From positions 608,001 to 672,000 of the forward strand of contig CAWHHI010000004.1 of the NCBI GenBank assembly GCA_963829055.1: a stretch of 64,000 nucleotides of DNA, given 5' to 3'. The position numbers were made by a program, and so were the translations under genes. Of the stretch, positions 7,926 to 60,555 are shown piece by piece; position 1 is the first letter of the stretch, and each line of letters opens with the position of its first letter. The notes under the pieces are model-generated. The model was not told the origin of the DNA. It searched no databases and worked only from the letters and a program-made list of their open reading frames with translations. Origin of the DNA: an uncultured Gemmatimonadaceae bacterium (GTDB taxonomy: Bacteria; Gemmatimonadota; Gemmatimonadetes; Gemmatimonadales; Gemmatimonadaceae).

Positions 7926-7959
7926 ACGAAAACGGCCCGGATGCGTGAGCGCCGGGCCG
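7926..7959 (-). terminator. Putative intrinsic terminator in the metH leader
   Basis: Minus strand CGGCCCGG-11 nt loop-CCGGGCCG followed by TTTTCGTT, between the SAM-II aptamer and the metH ATG. Confidence 0.55.
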
Positions 7960-7962
7960 GCG

Positions 7963-8010
7963 CTTTAGCAGTTGTTTTACGTGGCCGCAATTTGCCTCAA
8001 ATCGCCACGA
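7963..8010 (-). ncRNA. SAM-II (SAM_alpha-like) riboswitch
   Basis: Minus strand CGTGGCGATTTGAGGCAAATTGCGGCCACGTAAAACAACTGCTAAAG matches the SAM-II pattern CGUGG-GAUUU..UUGC.GCCACG..AAACAA..GCUAAA; directly upstream of metH. Confidence 0.85.
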
Positions 8011-8119
8011 TGCTGTTGTCCGCCGCGAAGCTTCGCGTACGACGACCGGCTATGCATACATAGCCGTCGCTCTCTGGAGACGGCAAGCCGAATGCCGTCC
8101 GGTCGAACCGGCACCGGAC

Positions 8120-19931: not shown

Positions 19932-20038
19932 GGCGCGACAAGGGCAAACCCGTCGAAAGGCGGGGACGCAAAGCATACGGGGCTACAGCGCGCATCGGAT
20001 CGAACACGCGCGCCACGCCGGCCGGGCCGCCGAACGCC
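19932..20038 (+). ncRNA. c-di-GMP-I (GEMM) riboswitch
   Basis: CGACAAGGGCAAACCCGTC-GAAA-GGCGGGGACGCAAAGC..GGGCTA..GCCGCCGA: GGCAAA, GNRA-capped P2, GACGCAAAGC and the P3 pattern; about 18 nt before ATG 20056. Confidence 0.9.
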
Positions 20039-26360: not shown

Positions 26361-26453
26361 GGTCACGACAAAGGCAAACGTGCTGAAAGGCATGGACGCA
26401 AAGCTCCGGGGCTGTAGCACGCAAACGCGTGCCATGCTGGCCGAGCCGCCGAC
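26361..26453 (+). ncRNA. c-di-GMP-I (GEMM) riboswitch, second copy
   Basis: GGTCACGACAAAGGCAAACGTGCT-GAAA-GGCATGGACGCAAAGCTCCGGGGCT..GCCGAGCCGCCGA; followed by RBS AGGAGA and ATG 26471. Confidence 0.88.
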
Positions 26454-49998: not shown

Positions 49999-51030
49999 GC
50001 GCCGCGATCGCATGGCGGTGCACGGCTCGTTAGGCGTCGCCTGCCCGCGGTGTCGGGGCGATCTCGCGCGCGGGCCGACGCGTTCGACTGTGAGCGCTGC
50101 GACGCGCACTTTCCCGTGGTGCTGGGCATTCGCCGATTTCCGTCTCGATCCCGATCCCGTGGATCGGCCTCGAGGACGATCGCGAGAAGGCCCGCCGCCT
50201 CGAGGAGCGGTTCGCGCGGTGCGTCGCTCGAGGCGATGGTGCGGACGTACTGGTCGATGACGCCTGGCACGCCGGCGGCGCAGGCCGTCGCGCTTCGTGC
50301 ATCACGTCATGCACGGCGTACGCGCGATCGCGCGAGTGGGTCGAGCGTCTCGAGCCGCCCGACGGTCGACCGTCGGGGCCGTGGCTCGATGTCGGCACGG
50401 GGACAGGCGACCTGGCGTCGTGCGGTCGCGGAGCACGGCATTCGTGCCGTCGGCGATCGACATCGCCATGCGATGGCTGGTCGTCGCGCGCCGCCGCGCG
50501 GAGCTCGCCGGCGTCACACGTCGATCTCATCTGCTGCAACGCCGAGCACTTGCCATTCGCCGATCGGCACGTTCGCGCGCGTCGTCTCGGTCGGAACGAT
50601 CGAGCATTGCGCGACGCCGAGCGGGCGCTCGGCGAAGTCGACGACGCGTGCTGGCGCGCGGCGGCGACGTCAGGCTTCGGACGGTGAATCGCTTCACCAT
50701 GCTGACCGAGCCGCACGTCGGGGTGTGGGGCGTCGGCTTCGTGCCGCGTCGGATGGCCGATCGGTACGTGCGCTGGCGCGGCGGTCAGGGCTACGCGCAC
50801 CACCGTCCACTGTCGTCGCGCGAGCTGCGACGCGGGCATGCGACGCGCGGGATTCAGCGCCGTGCGCGTCGAGCGCGGCGTCGCTGCTGCGCGACCGAGC
50901 GCGCACGGCTAGGCGGTGCTGCAGTGGGCGCGTCGGCGCGTACGAGCGGCGCGACGGCATTCCCGCTCGTCGAGCGCGCGCTTCGCGGCGTCGGCGCCGC
51001 TGCTCGAAGCGCAGTGGGGTCGCGGCATGA
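49995..51030 (+). CDS. Class I SAM-dependent methyltransferase with an N-terminal Cys-pair (Trm112-like) segment; frameshifted
   Basis: CPRC..CERC..FPVVLGI, WLDVGTGTG, ID...RWLVVA, CCNAEHLPF, EPHVGVWG. Confidence 0.7.
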
Positions 51031-51808
51031 CTGCGCCACGCATCTTCACGCCGGAGTACTACGCGCGCATGCGCGAGCTCGAGGCTGGCAGCTGGTGGAA
51101 CGCCGCGATGCGCGACATCGCGGCAATGCTGCTCAACGACGTTCAGCTGCCTGCAGCGGCACGATACTCGACGTCGGATGCGGGTCGGGCCAGACGCTCG
51201 CGTGGTTCAGTCAGCGGTTCGGCGCATGGCGGACACTCGGCTGCGACATCTCGCCGGACGCGGTGACGGCCGCCGCGACGGCTCGGGGTTCGAGATCACG
51301 CGGGCATCGGCGCTCGCGCTCCCGTATCCGTCCGGCACCGCGGACGTCGTCATCTCGCTCGACGTGCTGCAGCACGTCCCACTTGGCGGCGGGGACGTGA
51401 CCGCGCTTCGCGAGATGCGCCGCGTCCTCAAGCCAGGTGGGTGGCTGTTCGTTCGGACGAACGCACAGAGCTTTCCGGCGACCGCGGACGATCACGAGTA
51501 CCAGTTCCATCGCTACGAGCCGCGCGAGCTACAGCGACAAGCTGGCGGCAGTCGGCTTCGAGGTGCGTCGTCTGAGTCGCGTGAACGCTCTGCTCGGGTC
51601 TGGCGGAGATTCCGCGTGAGCTGCGCGCGCGGCGCGTGCAGGCGGCGGACTATCATGGCATTCTCGCGACGAGCAACGGTCATGCGTCGTGGACGTCTGC
51701 GGCGAAGCGGGCGTGGGTTCGTCTCGAGGGGCGGCGGTTCGGCGCGGCGTTAGGCTTCCGGCCGGCCGCACCATTGTCGCCTTGTGCCAGGCGCCCGACA
51801 GTCGATGA
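51027..51808 (+). CDS. Class I SAM-dependent methyltransferase; frameshifted
   Basis: ILDVGCGSG, LPYP..TAD...LDVLQH, EMRRVLKPGG, HRY. Confidence 0.82.
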
Positions 51809-53101
51809 ATCGCACTTGCCCACGTGCGACCGGACGGAGATCCGAGCAGCGTGACCGCCATCGCGAGGTCTCGCGACAACGACGGCCCGGCTGCTGTCGC
51901 GCACCCGTTGGCGCGACGCCTCGCGGTCGTCGGGCCTGAAGAGGAGCTGTTGCTGCTCACCGCCGGCGGCGTCGCCAATGACGATGCCATTCGCGTCGCG
52001 CGGTGGCGACATCAACTGGGCGCGGTTCCTCGGACTCGCACAGCTCGAGCGTGCGGTGCCGGTGATTTTCCCTCGTCTGCCGACCCTGGTTGGTGACGCC
52101 CTCCCGACGACCGTGCTCGATCAGATGCGCCGAGCTCGCGCTCGTCTCGGATTTCGCGATGCTGCACCTCGAGACGCGGCTGCGTGAGTCGTTGAGCGTG
52201 CTGCACGGCGCCGGCGTCCGCGTGATGCTGCTCAAAGGTGCCGCGCTGGCGCACACAGTGTATTCCGGCGTTCGACAGCGGCCGATGTCCGACCTCGACC
52301 TGCTGGTCGATGCCAGCAATGCGCGCCTCGCTCGCCGCGTGATGCTGTCCGCGGGATGGCGCGAGATCGTCGGTGGCATACCAGACAGCGTGTACGATCG
52401 CCATCACCACCTGCCTCCGCTTCACGACACGAGGTCGCCGGACCTGCAGCTCGAGATTCACACGGCGCTGTTTCCGGAGCGGCAGCCGTTCGCGTTCGAC
52501 GCCCGCGACCTCTGGGCCTCTGCTCACCCGTTAGGCAAGGGATTCCCCGAGGCATACACGCCGGATGCGATTCACTCGCTTCTCCACGCCAACCTCCACT
52601 TCCTGTGGTCGCACCAGGGACGGTTCGGCGTCTGGCGAACCATGCGCGACGTCGATGCGCTTACTCGCAGGCGACGCCATCGACTGGGACGCATTCGTCA
52701 GAACCGCGAAAGCCAGTCGTGGCGCGACGGCGTGTTACTGGACGTTTCGAATCGCGACACTGACTGCCGGTATTGCAATTCCCGACGTCGGTGATGGCGG
52801 CTCTCCGGCCCCCGCGAAGTCGCTACGTCCTTCAGGCGATCGAGCGACACTTCCTGAAGAACCTCTTCCCGGTCGAATTCGCGTGTCCTTCCGTCGCTCT
52901 GGATCACGCGCTGTGGGAGCTGGCGGTGATGCCCGGTTGGAGCGGACACGGCGAGGTCCGACCGTGGGACGAGGAACCCGACTTCGTGGTGCCGGGCGAG
53001 GCAGTCGGAAGCCGTCGCGCATTCTTCCGAAGAGGGAGCGAGTGCGTCGGCTGCTCGCCTCTCCTGGATACATCCGCACGCTGCTGCGCTCTCGTAGCTG
53101 A
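51805..53101 (+). CDS. Nucleotidyltransferase (NTP_transf_5-like family seen in some lasso clusters); frameshifted
   Basis: VMLLKGAAL...Y....RPMSDLDLLV, LEIH, D.IH.LLH..LH; start overlaps the upstream methyltransferase stop (ATGA). Confidence 0.82.
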
Positions 53102-53296
53102 TTTCCGGGATCGAGAGTTCGTCGCACTCTGGCTCTCGCGGCACAACGCCACAACTATGGCGTATCGTCAACGGTTGTGTCGCGAGTGCGCAACTCTCCC
53201 GGAGAGACGTCGTGGCTGCTAGCGTAACTGCTGACGCGAAGTCTTCCCACGCGACGAGTTAGGCCTCTGCGCGACCGTCGACCGCAATGCCAGTCT

Positions 53297-53314
53297 GCGG
53301 CACGCACGCTGCTA
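53297..53314 (+). promoter_or_regulatory. Candidate sigma-54 (-24/-12) promoter
   Basis: CGGCACGCACGCTGCTA = GG-N10-GC with GGCACG, about 200 bp upstream of the cyclase-like gene. Confidence 0.35.
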
Positions 53315-53515
53315 TTACCGAGCCCGCGATGGGGCAGTCGCAACTCGCGTACTGAAGCTCCCCAATAGTCATAGTCGAGGCGGCCCGTCGGTCTGGTTCG
53401 TTCAGCACGCTCGTTCGGATCTGACGGTCAGCCGGCGCTGCTCACCAGCAGCGCTCCGTCTTTGTCTGCGCGACGCGGTGGCAAGGTGCACGCGTGATTC
53501 TAGCGTCGAGCGTCA

Positions 53516-55458
53516 ATGAGTGGATTTGTCGCGATCGTTGATCCGAGCAAGCGGCTCCTCGCGGAGGCGAGCGTCGCGCGCATGCTCGGCGCGCTGGCGC
53601 CGCGCGGTGATCGCTCAGAGGTCAAGCGCGACGGCGAGTGCGTGCTTGCTGTCACTCGATTCGAGTGGGAGCTCGCCGATGGGTTTTCCGGACCGACTCT
53701 TCTCGTCACCGACGGCGACCTGAGCGTGGTCGCGGACGCGAGCGTCTACTACCGCGATGACCTCCTGCGATCACTCCACGGGGCGGGCGTGCGCCCAGCC
53801 GGTTCATCGGTCGCCCACCTCATCGCCGCGGCCTATCGTGCGTGGGGCAGTGATTGCACGAAGTATCTCGAAGGTGATTACTCGTTCGTTATCTACGACC
53901 ACAAGCAGCGTCGAACGTTCGCGGCGCGCGACTTCCTGGGTCGTCGACCGCTCTACTTCGTCGAGATCGGCGACGCGCTGTTGGTGTCGTCGTCCGTGAG
54001 CGCGATCGTGGCGCACCCGGCCTGTTCGACGGAGCTCGACGACGTTGCGCTCGCCGAGTTCGTTTGTGTGAGTCTCGCCGGGGCCTCGACGCACACCATA
54101 TCGCGCGGTGAGCGCGGTCCCGCCGGCCACGTGGCTCGATCCGCGACGCGCTGGGGCACGCCCGGACGCACCAGTATTGGCGTCTCGACCTTAGCGACAG
54201 TGCAGACGCCGAGTCGTTCGATGCGGCGAGTGAAGAGCTCGGCGACCTGTTGGGTAACGCGATCGTCGAACGACGTGCGCTGGCCGGCCCCACGACGATC
54301 TGGCTGAGCGGCGGGTATGACTCGCCGGTGATGTTCGGCGTCGGCAATGCAGCACTCGACCGTCTTGGTCTCGGTCGACTTGGCCCCGGTGTCGTTCAGC
54401 TACCCTGTCGGCGATGCGGGGCGAGAGGACGAGCTGATCGAGGAGATCACGAATTTCTGGGCAACACAGCCGACGTGGCTGTCGATCGATGACGTTCCGC
54501 TGCTCGCCGAACGCAGCGCGAGACGCTGCCCGTGCCGACGTTCCGTTCCAGCACGCCTTCGAGAACTGGCTTCGTGCGTTGTTAGGCGCCACCGCACGCG
54601 CGGGCTCGCGCGTCGCGCTCTATGGCGACGGTGGCGACCAGCTGTTCGCGGTGTCGACGGTGTTTCTCCGCGATCTGTTCGGTTCGCTGAAATGGCGCGA
54701 GTTGCGGCGTGAGTGGCGGGCGTTCGGCGGCGGCGGGGCGCGGGCGCTGTGGAACTATGTGGCTCGACCGGTTGTTGCCGAGCGAGTGCGGGCGGTGCGA
54801 GGGAAGAGCGGGCCACAAACGTCGTTTCCGGATTGGGTCAGCCGTGAGTTCGTGGCGACGACATTCGTTGGAGCGGCTGGAGGCCGAAGCGGAAGCGGCG
54901 CTCGAAATGACGAAGGAGGACAGGCGGCCACCGAGACGCGCCGGTCGCTTGGCAACCCAATGGTCACGCGCGTGTCGCGGCTTTCTCGGGTCTCGGCACT
55001 GGAGCACGGAGTGGAGCTCCGGGCGCCCTTGTTCGATCGGCGCATCGTGCGAGTTCGCGCTGCGGCGTCCTCGTCGGGAACGCGCATCAGCGGGCGCTGT
55101 CAAACACTTGCTTCGACGCTGCGCGCGCGACGTCTTGCCGCCAAGTGTGCTGGCGCCCGCGTAAGGCAAAGACCGGAGTGCTCACGGACTATTTCGCGCG
55201 ATCTTTTCGCGCTGATCCGAACGGGCTAGTGAGTGACGTTCTGACGCGATCCATTCTTGCGCAGCGCGGCATTGTTGATGGTGCGGCAATGCAACAGGCG
55301 TGGCATGAATACAAGACTCGCGGGGCCGGCGCGGGTGGATATTTGTTCTTGCTTTTCAGATTGAACTTTGGCTTCGTGCCCGTGTTCCTAACGCGGTAGT
55401 TACACCCGTAAATGCAGATCAATGGCTCAGAGTGCCAGCGGCAGGGTTCGTGCAGTAA
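53516..55458 (+). CDS. Asparagine-synthetase-like ATP-dependent lasso cyclase candidate (C protein); frameshifted
   Basis: Starts MSGFVAI (no catalytic Cys2); ARDFLGRRPLY, PP-loop WLSGGYDS, YGDGGDQLF, LRAPLFDRR, KHLLR, R..K, ELWLR; immediately upstream of a lasso-type precursor. Confidence 0.75.
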
Positions 55459-55569
55459 CCACTGTCGGTGTGGTTCACCACGTCCGGCAGGCCGCGGGCT
55501 TGCACCTACGGCCACACCGGTCGTAATTTGCCGGGAATTCCCGGAAAAACACCTCTCTTGGGAGGGTTC

Positions 55570-55689
55570 ATGTACCAGGCACCCAAACTCGAGCGTTTGG
55601 GCTCGTTCCGCGAGATCACTCTCGGCGGTGGCGAATTCAATCCCGGCGACGGAACGAACGCGTTTCATCGCTACTCGCCGAACGGCTAA
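55570..55689 (+). CDS. Lasso peptide precursor (A), 39 aa: MYQAPKLERLGSFREITL|GGGEFNPGDGTNAFHRYSPNG
   Basis: RBS GGAGGG at 55561; leader motif YxxPxLxxxGxxxxxT with Thr(-2); core Gly1 with Asp9; aromatic/bulky residues F14, H15, R16, Y17 in the tail. Confidence 0.88.
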   Translation: MYQAPKLERLGSFREITLGGGEFNPGDGTNAFHRYSPNG

Positions 55690-55697
55690 CGCTCTAG

Positions 55698-55737
55698 CGG
55701 CGGGGGAGGCTGAAAGCCTCCCCCGCCGGCCTTTTTT
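55698..55737 (+). terminator. Rho-independent terminator after the precursor gene
   Basis: CGGCGGGGGAGGCT-GAA-AGCCTCCCCCGCCG 14-bp stem followed by GCC-TTTTTT. Confidence 0.85.
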
Positions 55738-55787
55738 CCCACCTCGTCGCGCCCTAACAATTTCTGCGTTGCCCAGGCGTCTCTCCC

Positions 55788-56753
55788 TTGCGAGACCACG
55801 CCATATTCGGCGGCTGTCTCCGATCGGAGATTCCGCTCCCCGAACTCCCGCCCATTGACGCCGCCGAGCCTGACTGGTTCTTCCATCGCGCGTCGACGCT
55901 CGTCCCGGCGTTGCAGTACCTCGGTGACGACCCGTCGACGCCACCCTGCGGGTTCGGTGCAGCACAATCGCGTGACGGCTTTCGGTTCGATTTCGACGAC
56001 ACCGGAATCTTCGACATCACCAGCGGCGGCCGCGACATCGCCTGGACTGCCCGGCAGGCATCCGCCCTCGAGCTAGTGCGCGCCGATCTCGTTAGGCGGC
56101 GTGTTCTCGGTGGCGCTTCATCTGCAGGGCCTTCTCTGTCTGCACGGCAGCGCCGTCGCGGTCGCCGACTACGGCTGTCGGGTTCCTCGCCAACAAAGGG
56201 GCGGGCAAGTCGACGCTCGCGACCGCCCTCTGCGCTGCAGGCGGAACGCTGATCACCGACGACATGCTTCCAGTCGACCCGAAGGCGCCTGTGATGGCGT
56301 GGCCATCAATGCCCGCCGTGCGTCTTCTTCACGACTCGGCGTCGCACCTTCGTTACGCCAGCGGGTCGACGCATCCGGTGACGAACAAATACCACGTGAA
56401 CGAGCTTCCGTCGCACCAGGTCGAACGGCGTCGTCTTCGCGTTGGCGCCATCTACGAGCTCGCGCCGGTGCCTGCGGGTGCTGGGGTGCCGCCCGTGGAA
56501 CGTATTCGGGTGACGGGCACTGCGGCCGTTGGCACGCTGCTGCGTCATCATCGCGCGGGAACGCCATCGGCAAGGCGGAGACGATGAACCTGTTCCTGCG
56601 CGCCAGCGACATCGTTCGCGCGGTGCCCGTGTACCGTCTCCAGGTCGCGCGGGATTTCGATCGCTTGCCCGACGTCGTGGATCAGATCCGGCAGTGGCAT
56701 TCCGCAGCGCATCTCTGTCGACGCCGCTGGATCGCACACGACGGTCACCGTGA
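55788..56753 (+). CDS. HPr-kinase-like P-loop kinase (lasso tailoring-kinase type); frameshifted
   Basis: HAIFGGCLRSEIPLPEL N-terminus, LCLHGSAV, Walker A NKGAGKST, LITDD, VPVYRL...RDF..L. Confidence 0.78.
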
Positions 56754-57809
56754 CCGCGACTGCCAGTACCGTCGCCTTCGCTGCCTCCGCCTCGACCAGC
56801 ACCAATGCCGTCGTACTCGGGGGCTGACGAAGTCGTTCACGAAGCAACGCGGCTGGCGCGCCGTGGTCAGCCGGCAAAGCGCGCGAGTCGGTGCGGGCGC
56901 TGTCGGACGTCTCCGTGCGAGATACGCGTCGGGCGAGTTCTTCGGACTGCTCGGAGAGAACGGCGCCGGGAAGACGACGCTGTTCAAGATGCTCGCGACG
57001 CTGGTCACTCCCGACGCCGGTACTGCCATCGGTCAGCGGCTTCGACATGCTCAAGTCGCCGAATCGCGTGCGTGAGGTCGCTTGCCCCAGTCATCGCCGA
57101 CGAGCGCAGTCTGCACTGGCGCCTCTCCGCGCGGGAGAACATGCGCCTCTTCGCCTCGCTGCACGACCTCCGCGGCGCGGAGGCGACCCGCCGGATCGAC
57201 GAGCTGCTGAGCCTCGTCAATCTCGTCGAGGCCGCGGATCGCCTGGTGAGTGGCTTTTCGTCCGGAATGAAGCAGCGACTGCTGGTCGCCAGAACGTTGT
57301 TCGCGCGCCCGAGCGTCCTGTTGCTCGATGAGCCCACTCGAAGTCTGGATCCGATCTCGGCCCGTTCGTTTCGACGGTTCCTCCGCGAGGACGTTGCGCT
57401 GGCGCAGGGCTGCACGGTGCTGCTCGCGACGCATAACGCGGAAGAGGCATTCGAGCTCTGCGATCGTGTCGGGGTTCTGCATCGCGGCAATCTCGTCGCC
57501 GTCGGACAGACCTCGGAGCTCGCCCGCGAGGTCGGCGAGGACCGGTTCGCGCTCTGGATTCGCCCGGCTGATCAATCCGCGATCGATGCGCTCGTGGCCC
57601 GCGGCGTGATCAGGGACGCGAAAGCGTTCGGCGAGGCCGAGGAAGGGTGGTCGCGCATCGAGTGCGATTTGCGCGGTGGACTGGACGGTGCCGCCGAGGC
57701 GATCGCGTTTCTCGCAAGGCGGGAGTGAGCGTCGCGACGGTGTGAGCCCGTGAAGCTGTCCCTCGCGGATCTTCTCGAGCGCGTGCTGGCGCGCCACGTC
57801 AATGCATAA
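56750..57809 (+). CDS. ABC transporter ATP-binding protein (ABC-2 exporter type); frameshifted
   Basis: GENGAGKTT, FSSGMKQRL, LLLDEPT, LATH. Confidence 0.9.
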
Positions 57810-58610
57810 AGTCTGGGCGCTCATTCGCTCGAACTGGCTCGCCGCGACCAGCTACAAGCTGGGCTTCGTCTTCTCGTTCGGGTCGCTCGATTCTGAGCGT
57901 GTGCCGATCTTCTTCATCACGCGGCGCGCTCCAGACGACCATGGCGGACGTGATCCGCGGACAGGGCGATCAGTACTTCGCGTTCCTGGTCGTCGGCCTG
58001 ATCGCGTTCAACGTCGTTTCGTCGACGGTCTACGCGTTGCCCGGCGGACTGCAGACCGCGACATCGACCGGGACGCTCGAGGCGCTGCTCGCCACGCCGA
58101 CGTCGGTCACGGCGTTGCTCCCGGTCTGTCCGGCTACGAGGTGCTGCTCTCGGTGCTGCGCGAGCTGCGTCATGCTCGTCGCCGCCGGCTGTCTCGGAGC
58201 GCGTGTCGCGTGGCTGCAACTCGGCGCGAGCTTGCCGATCGTCGCGCTCATCGTGCTCGCGCACCTGCCGATCGCCATCATCACCGCCGGCGATGGTGCT
58301 CGCGTTCCGGACCCGCGGGCCACTGCCGCAGCTCGTGCTGCTGGCGTCGACGTTTCTCGGAGGCGTGTACTACCCGACGACGGTGACGGATTCCGGGCCG
58401 GATCAAGGTCGATTTCCGCGTTCCTCCCGCTGACGTACGGCCTCACGGCGCTGCGCGCGGTGCTGCTGGAAGGGAGACTCGATCGCCACCGTCTGGCGCG
58501 AGCTCTCGATTCTGCTCGCGTTCACGGTGGTCGCGCTCGTCGCCAGCGCCATCGGCGTTCCGGGCCGCGCTCCGCTACGCGCGCAGGTCGGGAACCTGGC
58601 GCAGTACTGA
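57802..58610 (+). CDS. ABC-2 type permease; frameshifted
   Basis: YFAFLVVG, GTLEALLATP, FLGGVYYP, LPLTYGL..LR, GNLAQY end. Confidence 0.85.
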
Positions 58611-58626
58611 GCCGGTGCCGGCCGGC

Positions 58627-60555
58627 CTAACGCGGCGGCTCACGTCGACGACTCTCGGCGGTCCGACGCCGCGGCCGGGATCGAAGAGCGGCTTCTCCAC
58701 CTCGGCGAACGGCGCGCGCACCAGCATGATGCGATCGAGCATGACGCCGTCGTGGTGCATCCAGACGTTGAGCACGTGCGGTCCCGGCTCCACGATGTTC
58801 AGCACCGCGAGCGTGGTGTCCGTCATCTGGAATTGAACATCCCACTCGAACGCGTCACGCGCCCAGCCCCACTGCGCCTACCGGAAACCGACCGAGTCGA
58901 TCGGCGAGCCGCACCTCTTCGTTGTCGAGCCCGACGTGAATGCTGCGACTGGCGCTATCGGGCGCCTGCTCCGCGAGCGTACACGACGTAGGTTCCGGGC
59001 TGGTCGAATCCAGATGTTGTATCGGAGCTCTGGCGCGTTCGCTCGAAACTCGCCGGCTCGCACGATCGTGCCGCGCTCTGGGACCGGCCACGACGTAGCC
59101 GTCGCCGGAGAATCCTGCGAGGTCTCGCGCGACGGTCCAGCTCTGCCCGTCGCGCGGCGTGTTGCTCACGAAGTGCTCGGCCTCGATGGTCGACGCGGCC
59201 ACCGTCCTCGACGAACTGTCCCTCGGCGGCAATGACGTTGACCCGCACACCTCGCGGGCCGGCTCGCCGACGTACTCGTGCGTCACCGTGAGCTCGAACG
59301 CGTGAGTCGGCGACGGTCAGTCGCAACGAACGATGCCGTCGCGCCGGTGTCCGACTGTCAGCCGAACGCGCGGCCCGTCCACCTGCCGCCATCGGTACCG
59401 GAGCGCCTGGCCCGCGTGCCGCATAGCTCGCCTCCCGTCGAGCGTGACCGTGTCGCCAACGACGTGCGTCGACGTGAATCCCGGGTGCGCGATGGGCGTC
59501 TCGTTCGCGTCGGCGCGCTCGAGCAAGCCGACGCGCGTTGCCGTGGTAGTACTTCGCCATCACGCTGTCCGGCAGCGGCCACTTCTCGGTGAACGGAAGG
59601 AACATGTCCAGCCGCTGGCGATACGACTTGAGCCAGCGGAACGTGTTCTCCATGTAGTCGGTGCCGAACATGACCTGGTCCTGATATCGATCGAAGAACG
59701 ACAGCTCCGCCGAGTCGAGCGTCGCGAACTCGACCTTCGGCTGATGGGCGCCACCCTCCGTGTACATGTTCGGGTACTTCTCGAGCATCTCTTCGAGGTA
59801 GGTGCGATCGCCGGCGGCGCCCGCCCAGTGCGCCGCGATCAGCTGGAGGCGCGGGTGCTTGCGCAGCACGCGCTCGCGCTGGAGCATGAGCGATCTCCCA
59901 GCGCACGGTCTCGGTTTGCCCCGTTAGGCGCCTGATGCTCGCCCTTGTACGCGCCGCCCAGGTGCACGAGCACCGGGACGCCCAGCCGCTCGGCGGTACT
60001 CCACAGCGGGTCGTACGCCGGGCGTGTCGAACGGGACGAGCGTTCCCGCTGTGTCGCGCGTCCAGTAGTTGACCGTTACCGGCGCCCGCCTGGTCCTTGA
60101 TCTTGAGGCCCGACGGCGCCGCGGCGCACGGCGTCCTCGAGCAGGCCGGCGACCCAGGTCGGGTAGTCGGCCGCTCGCTTCCGACGAAGACGTCGTTCGC
60201 GTCGTCGATCGGCACGTTGGCGAACAGCTTGAACCGAGCGGTGTCGGGGTACAGCGCGATCCGCTCGGCTCACGCGATCGCCGAAAATGCCATTTTCGAG
60301 CGAATTGTCCGGCGCCTTGAAGTCGACGACGAGCTCCACGTGCATCTCGTTCATCGTGCGCGTGAGCTCGTCGAAGTTCGGGCGCTTTCCCGGCCACGTC
60401 TCGACGCCGCCGAGGTGCGTGTGAATGTCGATGATGGAGAATCGCGGCGGCGGTGCGTGCGGCGGTGCGGCATCGCGGCATCCGCCGAACACGATGCGAG
60501 CAGGCAAGCCGCCGCCGTCACGGCCGGCCTAACGCGGACCGTCCGGCGCGCTCAT
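58627..60555 (-). CDS. Lipoprotein amidohydrolase (amidohydro_2-like) fused to PKD-like and carbohydrate-binding-like C-terminal domains; frameshifted
   Basis: LLASC lipobox; IIDIHTH, GLKI, VPVLVH, IAAHW, VMFGTD, YYHGNARRL; then VTLDG..YRWRQVDGP, IEAEHF..GFSGDGYV, LNVWMHHDG..LDRI. Confidence 0.65.

Follow-up and report, generated by a model that had tools for sequence, protein, structure and literature searches.

A class II-type lasso peptide precursor gene with a predicted Gly1-Asp9 ring in an uncultured Gemmatimonadaceae bacterium

The precursor gene and its predicted ring

The window used in this study is a 64,000-nucleotide (64-kb) stretch of DNA from an uncultured Gemmatimonadaceae bacterium (assembly GCA_963829055.1, contig CAWHHI010000004.1, positions 608,001 to 672,000), and its subject is a small gene for a lasso peptide precursor. 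As placed by tblastn with intact orthologues from congeneric genomes, the locus comprises, in this order, genes for a methyltransferase, a nucleotidyltransferase of the NTP_transf_5 family, a lasso cyclase, the precursor, an HPrK-like kinase, an ABC ATPase and an ABC-2 permease, followed by a convergent gene with an amidohydrolase domain (Table 1). The precursor frame (55570–55689) translates to the 39-residue peptide MYQAPKLERLGSFREITLGGGEFNPGDGTNAFHRYSPNG, ends in TAA (55687–55689), and is nested in a longer, GTG-started open reading frame (ORF) of 73 residues (55468–55689). A first-pass annotation made from the DNA letters had already noted a 39-residue ORF hidden in this way and a GGAGGG-ATG start region before it, and both are borne out by the translation and by direct reading of the bases. 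The peptide also passed the comparison with a lasso leader hidden Markov model that the same annotation had proposed as a check: NCBIfam NF033521 (lasso_leader_L3) matches residues 2–20 with 32.3 bits (E 6.2e-8, cut-off 19). A genome-wide scan with this model gave 31.7 bits at the precursor site and only two matches in the 7.78-Mb genome, the precursor and a paralogue on contig C15.

Table 1. Coordinates of the precursor locus, its RNA features and the second locus
Feature	Position	Strand	Basis and remarks
NTP_transf_5 (PsmN-like nucleotidyltransferase), at least 3 frames	51851..53098	+	PF14907 E 2.3e-24 on ORF 52090-52794
Lasso cyclase (asparagine synthetase-like, C), at least 5 frame pieces	53516..55458	+	GATase_7 and Asn_synthase fragments; stop TAA 55456-55458
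Structured 5' leader RNA	55425..55569	+	Overlaps last cyclase codons; alignments A2, A3, A5
Shine-Dalgarno GGGAGGG	55560-55566	+	Read directly; GGAGG core 55561-55565; 4 nt before ATG 55570
Leader peptide codons MYQAPKLERLGSFREITL	55570..55623	+	NF033521 match, pN/pS 0.14
Core peptide codons GGGEFNPGDGTNAFHRYSPNG plus TAA	55624..55689	+	Translation; predicted Gly1-Asp9 isopeptide ring
Terminator-like hairpin and T6	55698..55737	+	Stem 55698-55728: 14 pairs, 12 G-C, loop 3; GCC; T6 55732-55737
HPrK-like peptide kinase (K), 3 frames	55770..56780, end approximate	+	tblastn of 337-aa G006 orthologue covers 55770-56709
ABC transporter ATPase (DrrA-like), frame-split	56777..57806	+	PF00005 halves on two ORFs; tblastn; orthologue TIGR01188 E 1.2e-69
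ABC-2 permease, frame-split	57775..58630	+	tblastn; orthologue PF01061 E 3.8e-15
Second locus	G000:C19:36600-39900 (L033 8611-11883); L034 7453-11464; L037 655-4738		

Homologues were found at E < 1e-11 in four of six congeneric genomes, and a protein search with a 40-residue query, the window translation begun one codon upstream, returned three relatives. A 20-base leader pattern scanned over metagenome contigs gave 41 matches, comprising 29 related loci and 12 chance matches in unrelated DNA, which were dropped. Seventeen related loci are all from Gemmatimonadota, mostly from metagenome-assembled genomes (MAGs) of Gemmatimonadaceae. The identical 39-residue peptide is encoded by two metagenome contigs, L078 and L092, and is recorded as a called protein on 41 contigs; the family occurs widely in assemblies from rhizosphere and soil. 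Twelve further DNA runs, with shares of 0.32–0.37, were left out of this habitat picture. In 24 of the 29 related metagenome loci, the precursor has the cyclase upstream of it and the kinase downstream, and the same holds for the congeneric genomes G001, G002, G005 and G006.

Substitutions were counted over 27 distinct DNA sequences (351 pairs), leaving out L058, which has a frame-shifted core, and L060, which is cut by a contig end. For the precursor frame, the ratio of nonsynonymous to synonymous change (pN/pS) was 0.14 in the leader and 0.41 in the core. Reading these bases in frames +1 and +2 gave 1.38 and 1.93, which shows directly that purifying selection is confined to the precursor frame. 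The first-pass annotation had described a YxxPxL..G..T(-2) leader, that is Y(-17), P(-14), L(-12), G(-8) and T(-2), or Y2, P5, L7, G11 and T17 of the peptide; Tyr, Pro, Gly and Thr are invariant in all 27 sequences, and L7 is Leu or Phe. No change is seen at core residues G2, G3, D9, N12, H15, R16 and Y17. Position 1 holds A, G or S, position 4 holds A, D, E, M or S, and position 14 holds F or Y; across relatives, residue 18 is S, T or A. The conservation of the leader and of Asp9 in homologues, to which the first-pass annotation had tied its proposal, was found, with Thr(-2) and Asp9 unchanged in all 27 sequences. Given the model match, the frame-specific selection and the homologues, the ORF is a real protein-coding gene under purifying selection that matches the lasso leader family, and it does not owe its existence to the longer ORF or to an RNA element. 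Judged by its sequence, it is a genuine precursor gene for a class II-type lasso peptide, whose mature form is predicted.

The core has 21 residues and a calculated M of 2149.920 Da as a linear peptide and of 2131.910 Da as a lasso ([M+2H]2+ 1066.962), to which one phosphate would add 79.966 Da (2211.876 Da). Asp9 is its only conserved acidic residue and lies within positions 7–9, with a small residue at position 1; the outgroup precursor at locus L043 has Asp at position 9 too. Glu4, the other candidate acceptor, was rejected because position 4 varies, and the invariant Asp9 together with this variation favors a ring from residue 1 to Asp9. The Gly1-Asp9 ring of the first-pass annotation is therefore upheld as a well-supported prediction, and threading of the tail is predicted with it. 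The same annotation had offered F14, H15, R16 and Y17 as plug candidates. The last three are invariant, F14 is replaced by Tyr in some relatives, and H15, R16 and Y17 are the likely plug residues.

A different ring or topology would result if cleavage took place one residue later, giving an 8-residue Gly2-Asp9 ring, or if the product were a branched-cyclic, unthreaded peptide. In favor of such a product, G2 and G3 are invariant while residue 1 varies, and pseudomycoidin made without its kinase and nucleotidyltransferase was reported as not threaded (PMC6993621). Against it, small residues are usual at position 1 of lasso cores, Thr stands exactly at -2 relative to a G, A or S residue in all 27 sequences, and an A1-D9 ring is given for the paeninodin/pseudomycoidin alignment (PMC6993621). 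On balance, a ring or topology other than the threaded Gly1-Asp9 lasso is improbable, and the latter is used below.

Other Gemmatimonadaceae precursors that lie beside a cyclase (L046, L048, L054 and L052) have their first Asp at core positions 10–13 if cut after T(-2), which hints at a different cleavage site in those peptides.

Structured RNA around the precursor

Between the paralogues and throughout the genus, the 155 nt preceding the ATG are conserved. This leader RNA folds with -62.9 kcal/mol (z -2.76). It contains the palindrome CCGGGAAWTCCCGG, which is invariant, and its last element is a CCUCU/GGGAGG stem able to pair the ribosome-binding site. In an alignment of 26 sequences, 83.6% of cells are paired as compared with at most 48% in slid controls, and 13 pairs, of which four belong to the terminator stem, have changes in both partners; as a caveat, the structure used for this comparison is the fold of the window sequence itself. 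With a covariance model of the leader (R1), nine places were found in five of 41 genomes (G000, the genome of the window, and G001, G002, G005 and G006), all of them before precursor copies, and none in 34 genomes of other genera; neither the leader nor the hairpin matches an Rfam family (best E 1.4). Because the leader equals the coding part in conservation and covaries at paired positions, and because the hairpin gives the RNA a defined end, the conserved short RNA could be a regulatory RNA in which the ORF is incidental. We regard this as extremely improbable since substitutions are strongly synonymous in the precursor frame only, the peptide matches the curated protein family NF033521, and both the ATG and the Shine-Dalgarno sequence, kept as GGGAGG or GGAGG in alignment A3 of the relatives, are conserved. 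The protein-coding gene is the reading that we retain.

The paralogue on C15 is an orphan second precursor, MYEAPKLERLGTLRELTLGGGDFTPGDGANPFHRYAP (G000:C15:17385-17501, minus strand; locus L002 1504-1617), with the same 155-nt leader and hairpin and with no cyclase or kinase nearby. The orphan lineage also occurs in metagenome loci L063, L067, L075, L080 and L087, and its cores end in HRYAP (HRYAPLPG in L063).

The hairpin downstream of the precursor begins eight bases after the stop codon, and its T-run starts 3 nt after the stem. Its folding energy is -33.5 kcal/mol (z -4.17), a stability that was not reached by any of 200 shuffles. Terminator-like sites as such are not enriched in 53000–58000, where five were found and 4.1 were expected, and the precursor hairpin stands out by its strength. 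The terminator of the first-pass annotation, a 14-bp hairpin plus T6, is present in the window and has the features of an intrinsic terminator. Compensatory changes keep the stem intact among relatives; as a caveat, the T-run is confined to four of the 26 aligned sequences, the window-like ones. Contigs of six metatranscriptome runs from five soil studies lie on 55310–55708, and the RNA contigs X15, X16 and X20 have no mismatch over 224–289 nt. RNA contigs of two studies stop at 55703–55708, in the 5' arm of the hairpin, with no loose ends, whereas the DNA contig X1 runs through. These ends are a weak hint of an RNA 3' end at the hairpin and, equally weakly, hint at the attenuator role suggested in the first-pass annotation, in which precursor mRNA would accumulate above the kinase and ABC genes. 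Against this, the RNA contigs show neither strand nor level and may include DNA carry-over, and breaks of de Bruijn assembly at inverted repeats can mimic such a 3' end.

The 5' ends of the RNA contigs scatter (55310, 55393, 55420, 55424, 55442 and 55479), and therefore no start site can be named. The regions 55000–55300 and 55710–56170 are uncovered by RNA contigs in most runs, which has no bearing on level or transcript ends. A scan with the sigma-70 consensus found no promoter in 53000–58000. A TTGCAC-N18-TAATTT element picked out by eye at about 55502–55531 is unsupported as a promoter because the RNA contigs start further upstream. The likely transcript of the precursor is a short RNA with its start near 55420 and its end at the hairpin.

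Neighboring genes, frame breaks and tailoring

In the nucleotidyltransferase gene, the intact 449-residue G001 orthologue (PF14907 E 2.6e-40) aligns by tblastn in pieces that lie in frames 2, 3, 1 and 3. The intact cyclase orthologues of the congeners have 643 residues and align at 53516–55455; the best NCBIfam model for the cyclase is NF033535, which the intact orthologue matches with 215.3 bits, below the cut-off of 525, so that no equivalog call is made. Lasso-type cyclases number one per genome in G000, G001, G002, G005 and G006, and each is in the cyclase locus. The kinase orthologue (337 residues when intact) matches Hpr_kinase_C (E 0.001) and TIGR04352 (E 9.4e-10), both below their cut-offs, and has a His...GxGKS...DD motif; in the window, the P-loop GAGKS...DD starts at 56198. 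This motif is described for lasso kinases in PMC10368454.

In this assembly, the window copies of these genes are broken by many frame changes. If the frame changes in the cyclase, kinase and transporter genes were real, the pathway would be dead in this organism, which is a point against the main reading; the cluster would then be decaying, with a precursor expressed but never matured. Consistent with decay are the frame pieces of the cyclase (at least five) and of the kinase (three), a loss of roughly 890 nt at a second locus on contig C19 (see below), and a genome completeness of only 85.86% (7.78 Mb in 20 contigs). However, every gene in 51000–60500 that was compared with an intact orthologue shifts frame several times, whether it is peptide-related or not, and the unrelated neighbors (methyltransferase, amidohydrolase and nucleotidyltransferase) are broken in the same way. 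Contig L078, in which the cyclase and the kinase each keep to a single frame as far as they are visible, differs from the window by 42 mismatches and by 11 gaps of one base over 1223 aligned columns, with no gap in the precursor. The single-base indels in the cyclase are at 54973, 54997, 55049, 55159 and 55350, and further ones with respect to near-identical contigs are, for example, at 55933, 55972 and 56091; the same indels appear against the independent DNA contig X1. Single-base differences from near-identical contigs also occur in noncoding positions, namely an extra A in the A-run at 55550, which is absent from the RNA contigs with zero mismatches, and an extra base in the hairpin loop near 55710–55716. 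Inside the precursor ORF there is none in the near-identical DNA and RNA contigs. Because unrelated genes are broken alike and the breaks are single-base indels relative to near-identical contigs, the frame changes are most likely indels of an indel-prone long-read assembly and not decay of the cluster, which we consider very unlikely. If the assembly is indel-prone, gene calls across the whole genome will be unreliable.

The kinase may have Ser18 as its target, and the phosphate placed there may be decorated by the PsmN-like nucleotidyltransferase; PsmN adds hexose to the phosphate of pseudomycoidin according to PMC6993621. Orthologue cores of the G001/G002 type end in HRYS and fit a rule of phosphorylation at a C-terminal Ser. 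Several observations weigh against the same modification in the window peptide. (i) Its core ends in Y-S-P-N-G, and Ser18 is not C-terminal. (ii) Residue 18 is Ala in some relatives of the cluster type. (iii) The cluster-type cores of L079 and L093 (ending HRYAPIG) contain neither Ser nor Thr, yet the kinase is directly downstream. (iv) The lasso kinases PadeK, ThcoK and PsmK target a C-terminal Ser and BsfK targets Ser3, as described in PMC10368454. In view of the Pro-Asn-Gly after Ser18 and of the relatives with Ala18 or with no Ser or Thr, phosphorylation of Ser18 is put forward only as a moderate guess from the sequence.

Elsewhere in the window, two c-di-GMP-I riboswitch aptamers (19933–20034, plus strand, 56.8 bits; 26363–26453, plus strand, 70.9 bits) are upstream of glycosyltransferase/methyltransferase genes, and a SAM_alpha (SAM-II) riboswitch at 7945–8018 (minus strand) has 38.2 bits, slightly over the cut-off of 36.

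A second locus and the predicted maturation

Profile searches of the 64-kb window found neither a PqqD-like RiPP recognition element (RRE; B1) nor a transglutaminase-like peptidase (B2), and the sole PF13471 signal there, with 18.4 bits, is below the cut-off; the first-pass annotation had not remarked on this absence. This counts against lasso formation from the window locus unless these proteins are supplied from elsewhere. The only above-cut-off B2 in the genome is at C19:38980-39276 (PF13471 67.2 bits; NF033537 67.1 bits, cut-off 33), and a PqqD domain adjoins it directly upstream (C19:39427-39627, 52.2 bits); both ORFs are intact. A second PqqD match is located at C16:205222-205434 (plus strand, 47.1 bits) in an open frame of 221 residues.

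The same separation is seen in the congeners. In G001, G002 and G006, the only above-cut-off B2 is on a contig other than that of the cyclase locus, and the window locus and its four congeneric orthologous loci are all without B1 and B2. In G001 and G006, the second locus has the order B1-B2-A'-K'-ABC-permease, where A' and K' are its own precursor and kinase, and no cyclase was found in 16 kb of the 55.9-kb G001 contig or in the whole 5.6-kb G006 contig. The C19 locus is about 890 nt shorter than that of G001: A' is gone and K' is reduced to end remnants, with B1, B2 and the transporter remaining. The congener A' core has about 39 residues, two Cys and a C-terminal Ser, and it cannot form the usual lasso ring since it has no Asp or Glu at positions 7–9; A' may instead give rise to a linear, leader-cleaved phosphopeptide. 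The leaders of the window precursor and of the second locus have all motif residues in common.

The C19 pair is likely to process the window precursor in trans. We infer this from three observations: it is the only B1/B2 pair of the genome, it has stayed intact though A' was lost, and the two leaders carry the same motif residues. A competing reading is formation of the lasso without dedicated B proteins. Leader removal would then fall to a housekeeping protease and ring closure to the cyclase by itself, and the C19 pair would serve its own locus only. The lack of B1 and B2 at the window locus and at its four orthologous loci agrees with this, as does the report that pseudomycoidin is still made in Escherichia coli and Bacillus subtilis after deletion of psmB1/psmB2 (PMC6993621). 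However, all of the residues for B1/B2 recognition are kept in the leader under strong constraint, the C19 locus retains intact B1 and B2 even though its precursor and the greater part of its kinase are gone, as expected if they serve another substrate, and the closest outgroup locus, L043, still has B1-B2 at its end. Maturation without B proteins is therefore judged unlikely, and processing in trans by the C19 pair is preferred.

Elsewhere in the Gemmatimonadaceae, the usual order is B1-B2-C-A-K-ABC-permease-NTP_transf_5, where A is the precursor. The exceptions are L043, with B1-B2 at the far end, and L044 and L050, with B1-B2 between precursor and kinase; other exceptions among these loci are L053, in which no B1 or B2 was found, and L049, in which no B2 was found. 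The 9.7-kb contig of genome G016 (L035) carries B1-B2-A-K-ABC-permease-NTP_transf_5 but lacks a cyclase, and L049 contains two cyclase-precursor pairs in tandem. In a kinase tree of 19 rows, in which L035 and L036 have long branches, the kinases of the cyclase locus group with L043 (99/98) and those of the second locus form a separate clade (100/100). The two loci are thus not recent duplicates, and a recent duplication with reciprocal loss was rejected.

In the pathway that we propose, the YxxPxL leader would be recognized by B1 and cut by B2. The cyclase would adenylate Asp9 and form a 9-residue ring through which the tail runs, H15-R16-Y17 being its likely plug, and the two-component ABC system would export the product. 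As a whole, it is probable that the selected precursor gene gives a peptide that is cleaved after Thr(-2)-Leu(-1) and closed between Gly1 and Asp9 by the adjacent cyclase, with the C19 B1/B2 pair likely acting in trans. A wider proposal is more tentative and judged less likely than not: that the genus splits lasso biosynthesis over two unlinked, non-sister loci, with one B1/B2 pair serving two product classes. The cyclase locus would have lost B1 and B2, the cyclase-less locus would yield a leader-cleaved, phosphorylated linear peptide, and all precursors of the window family, the orphans included, would stand under the structured 155-nt leader RNA, which among the genomes searched is confined to this genus and which can mask the ribosome-binding site.

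The precursor is an ordinary new member of a known family, of a kind already recognized by automated naming at NCBI. Its orthologues from congeneric MAGs, HEX5071861.1, HEY5415301.1 and HTK54439.1, are named 'lasso RiPP family leader peptide-containing protein' (RiPP, a peptide made by the ribosome and modified after translation). They have in common with the window the leader, an A/G-G-G...D9...N-P-Y-H-R-Y core and the cyclase-precursor-kinase context, but end at HRYS and have A1, M4, V5 and S6, whereas the window peptide continues with Pro-Asn-Gly and has G1, E4, F5 and N6. The gene set is the one known from the psm and bsf clusters. The psm cluster of pseudomycoidin (Bacillus pseudomycoides; PMC6993621) resembles the window locus in the cyclase-precursor-kinase order, the HPrK-family kinase, the PsmN-type nucleotidyltransferase and the exporter, and in a ring from residue 1 to an inner Asp, which in the window is predicted. 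It differs in having B1 and B2 inside the cluster, a core that ends in a phosphorylated Ser and a Firmicute host, whereas in the window genome B1 and B2 are on another contig and the C-terminal residue is Gly. Paeninodin (pade, kinase PadeK) is likewise a kinase-associated class II lasso with a nine-residue A1-D9 ring, but its phosphorylated Ser is C-terminal and the pade cluster, as given in PMC6993621, is without a nucleotidyltransferase. The bsf system of Bradymonas sediminis (PMC10368454) has the same gene set of A, B1, B2, C, ABC exporter, K and N, and its kinase, stimulated by B1, acts on the internal Ser3; it differs from the window in a penultimate leader Ile in place of Thr, in forming one 7.2-kb cluster, and in a phosphosite near the N terminus.

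In searches of open-access text, no characterized lasso peptide from Gemmatimonadota was found, only counts of predicted clusters, for example in 29 marine MAGs (PMC11316326), and no description of a lasso cluster with its B proteins at a second locus was found in open-access text. The conserved leader RNA deserves a note in its own right. For the phylum, the window peptide is a concrete and cheaply testable lasso candidate. Genome mining would overlook this locus if it demands that B and C be adjacent, and the split architecture offers a natural test of whether one RRE/peptidase pair serves unlinked precursors.

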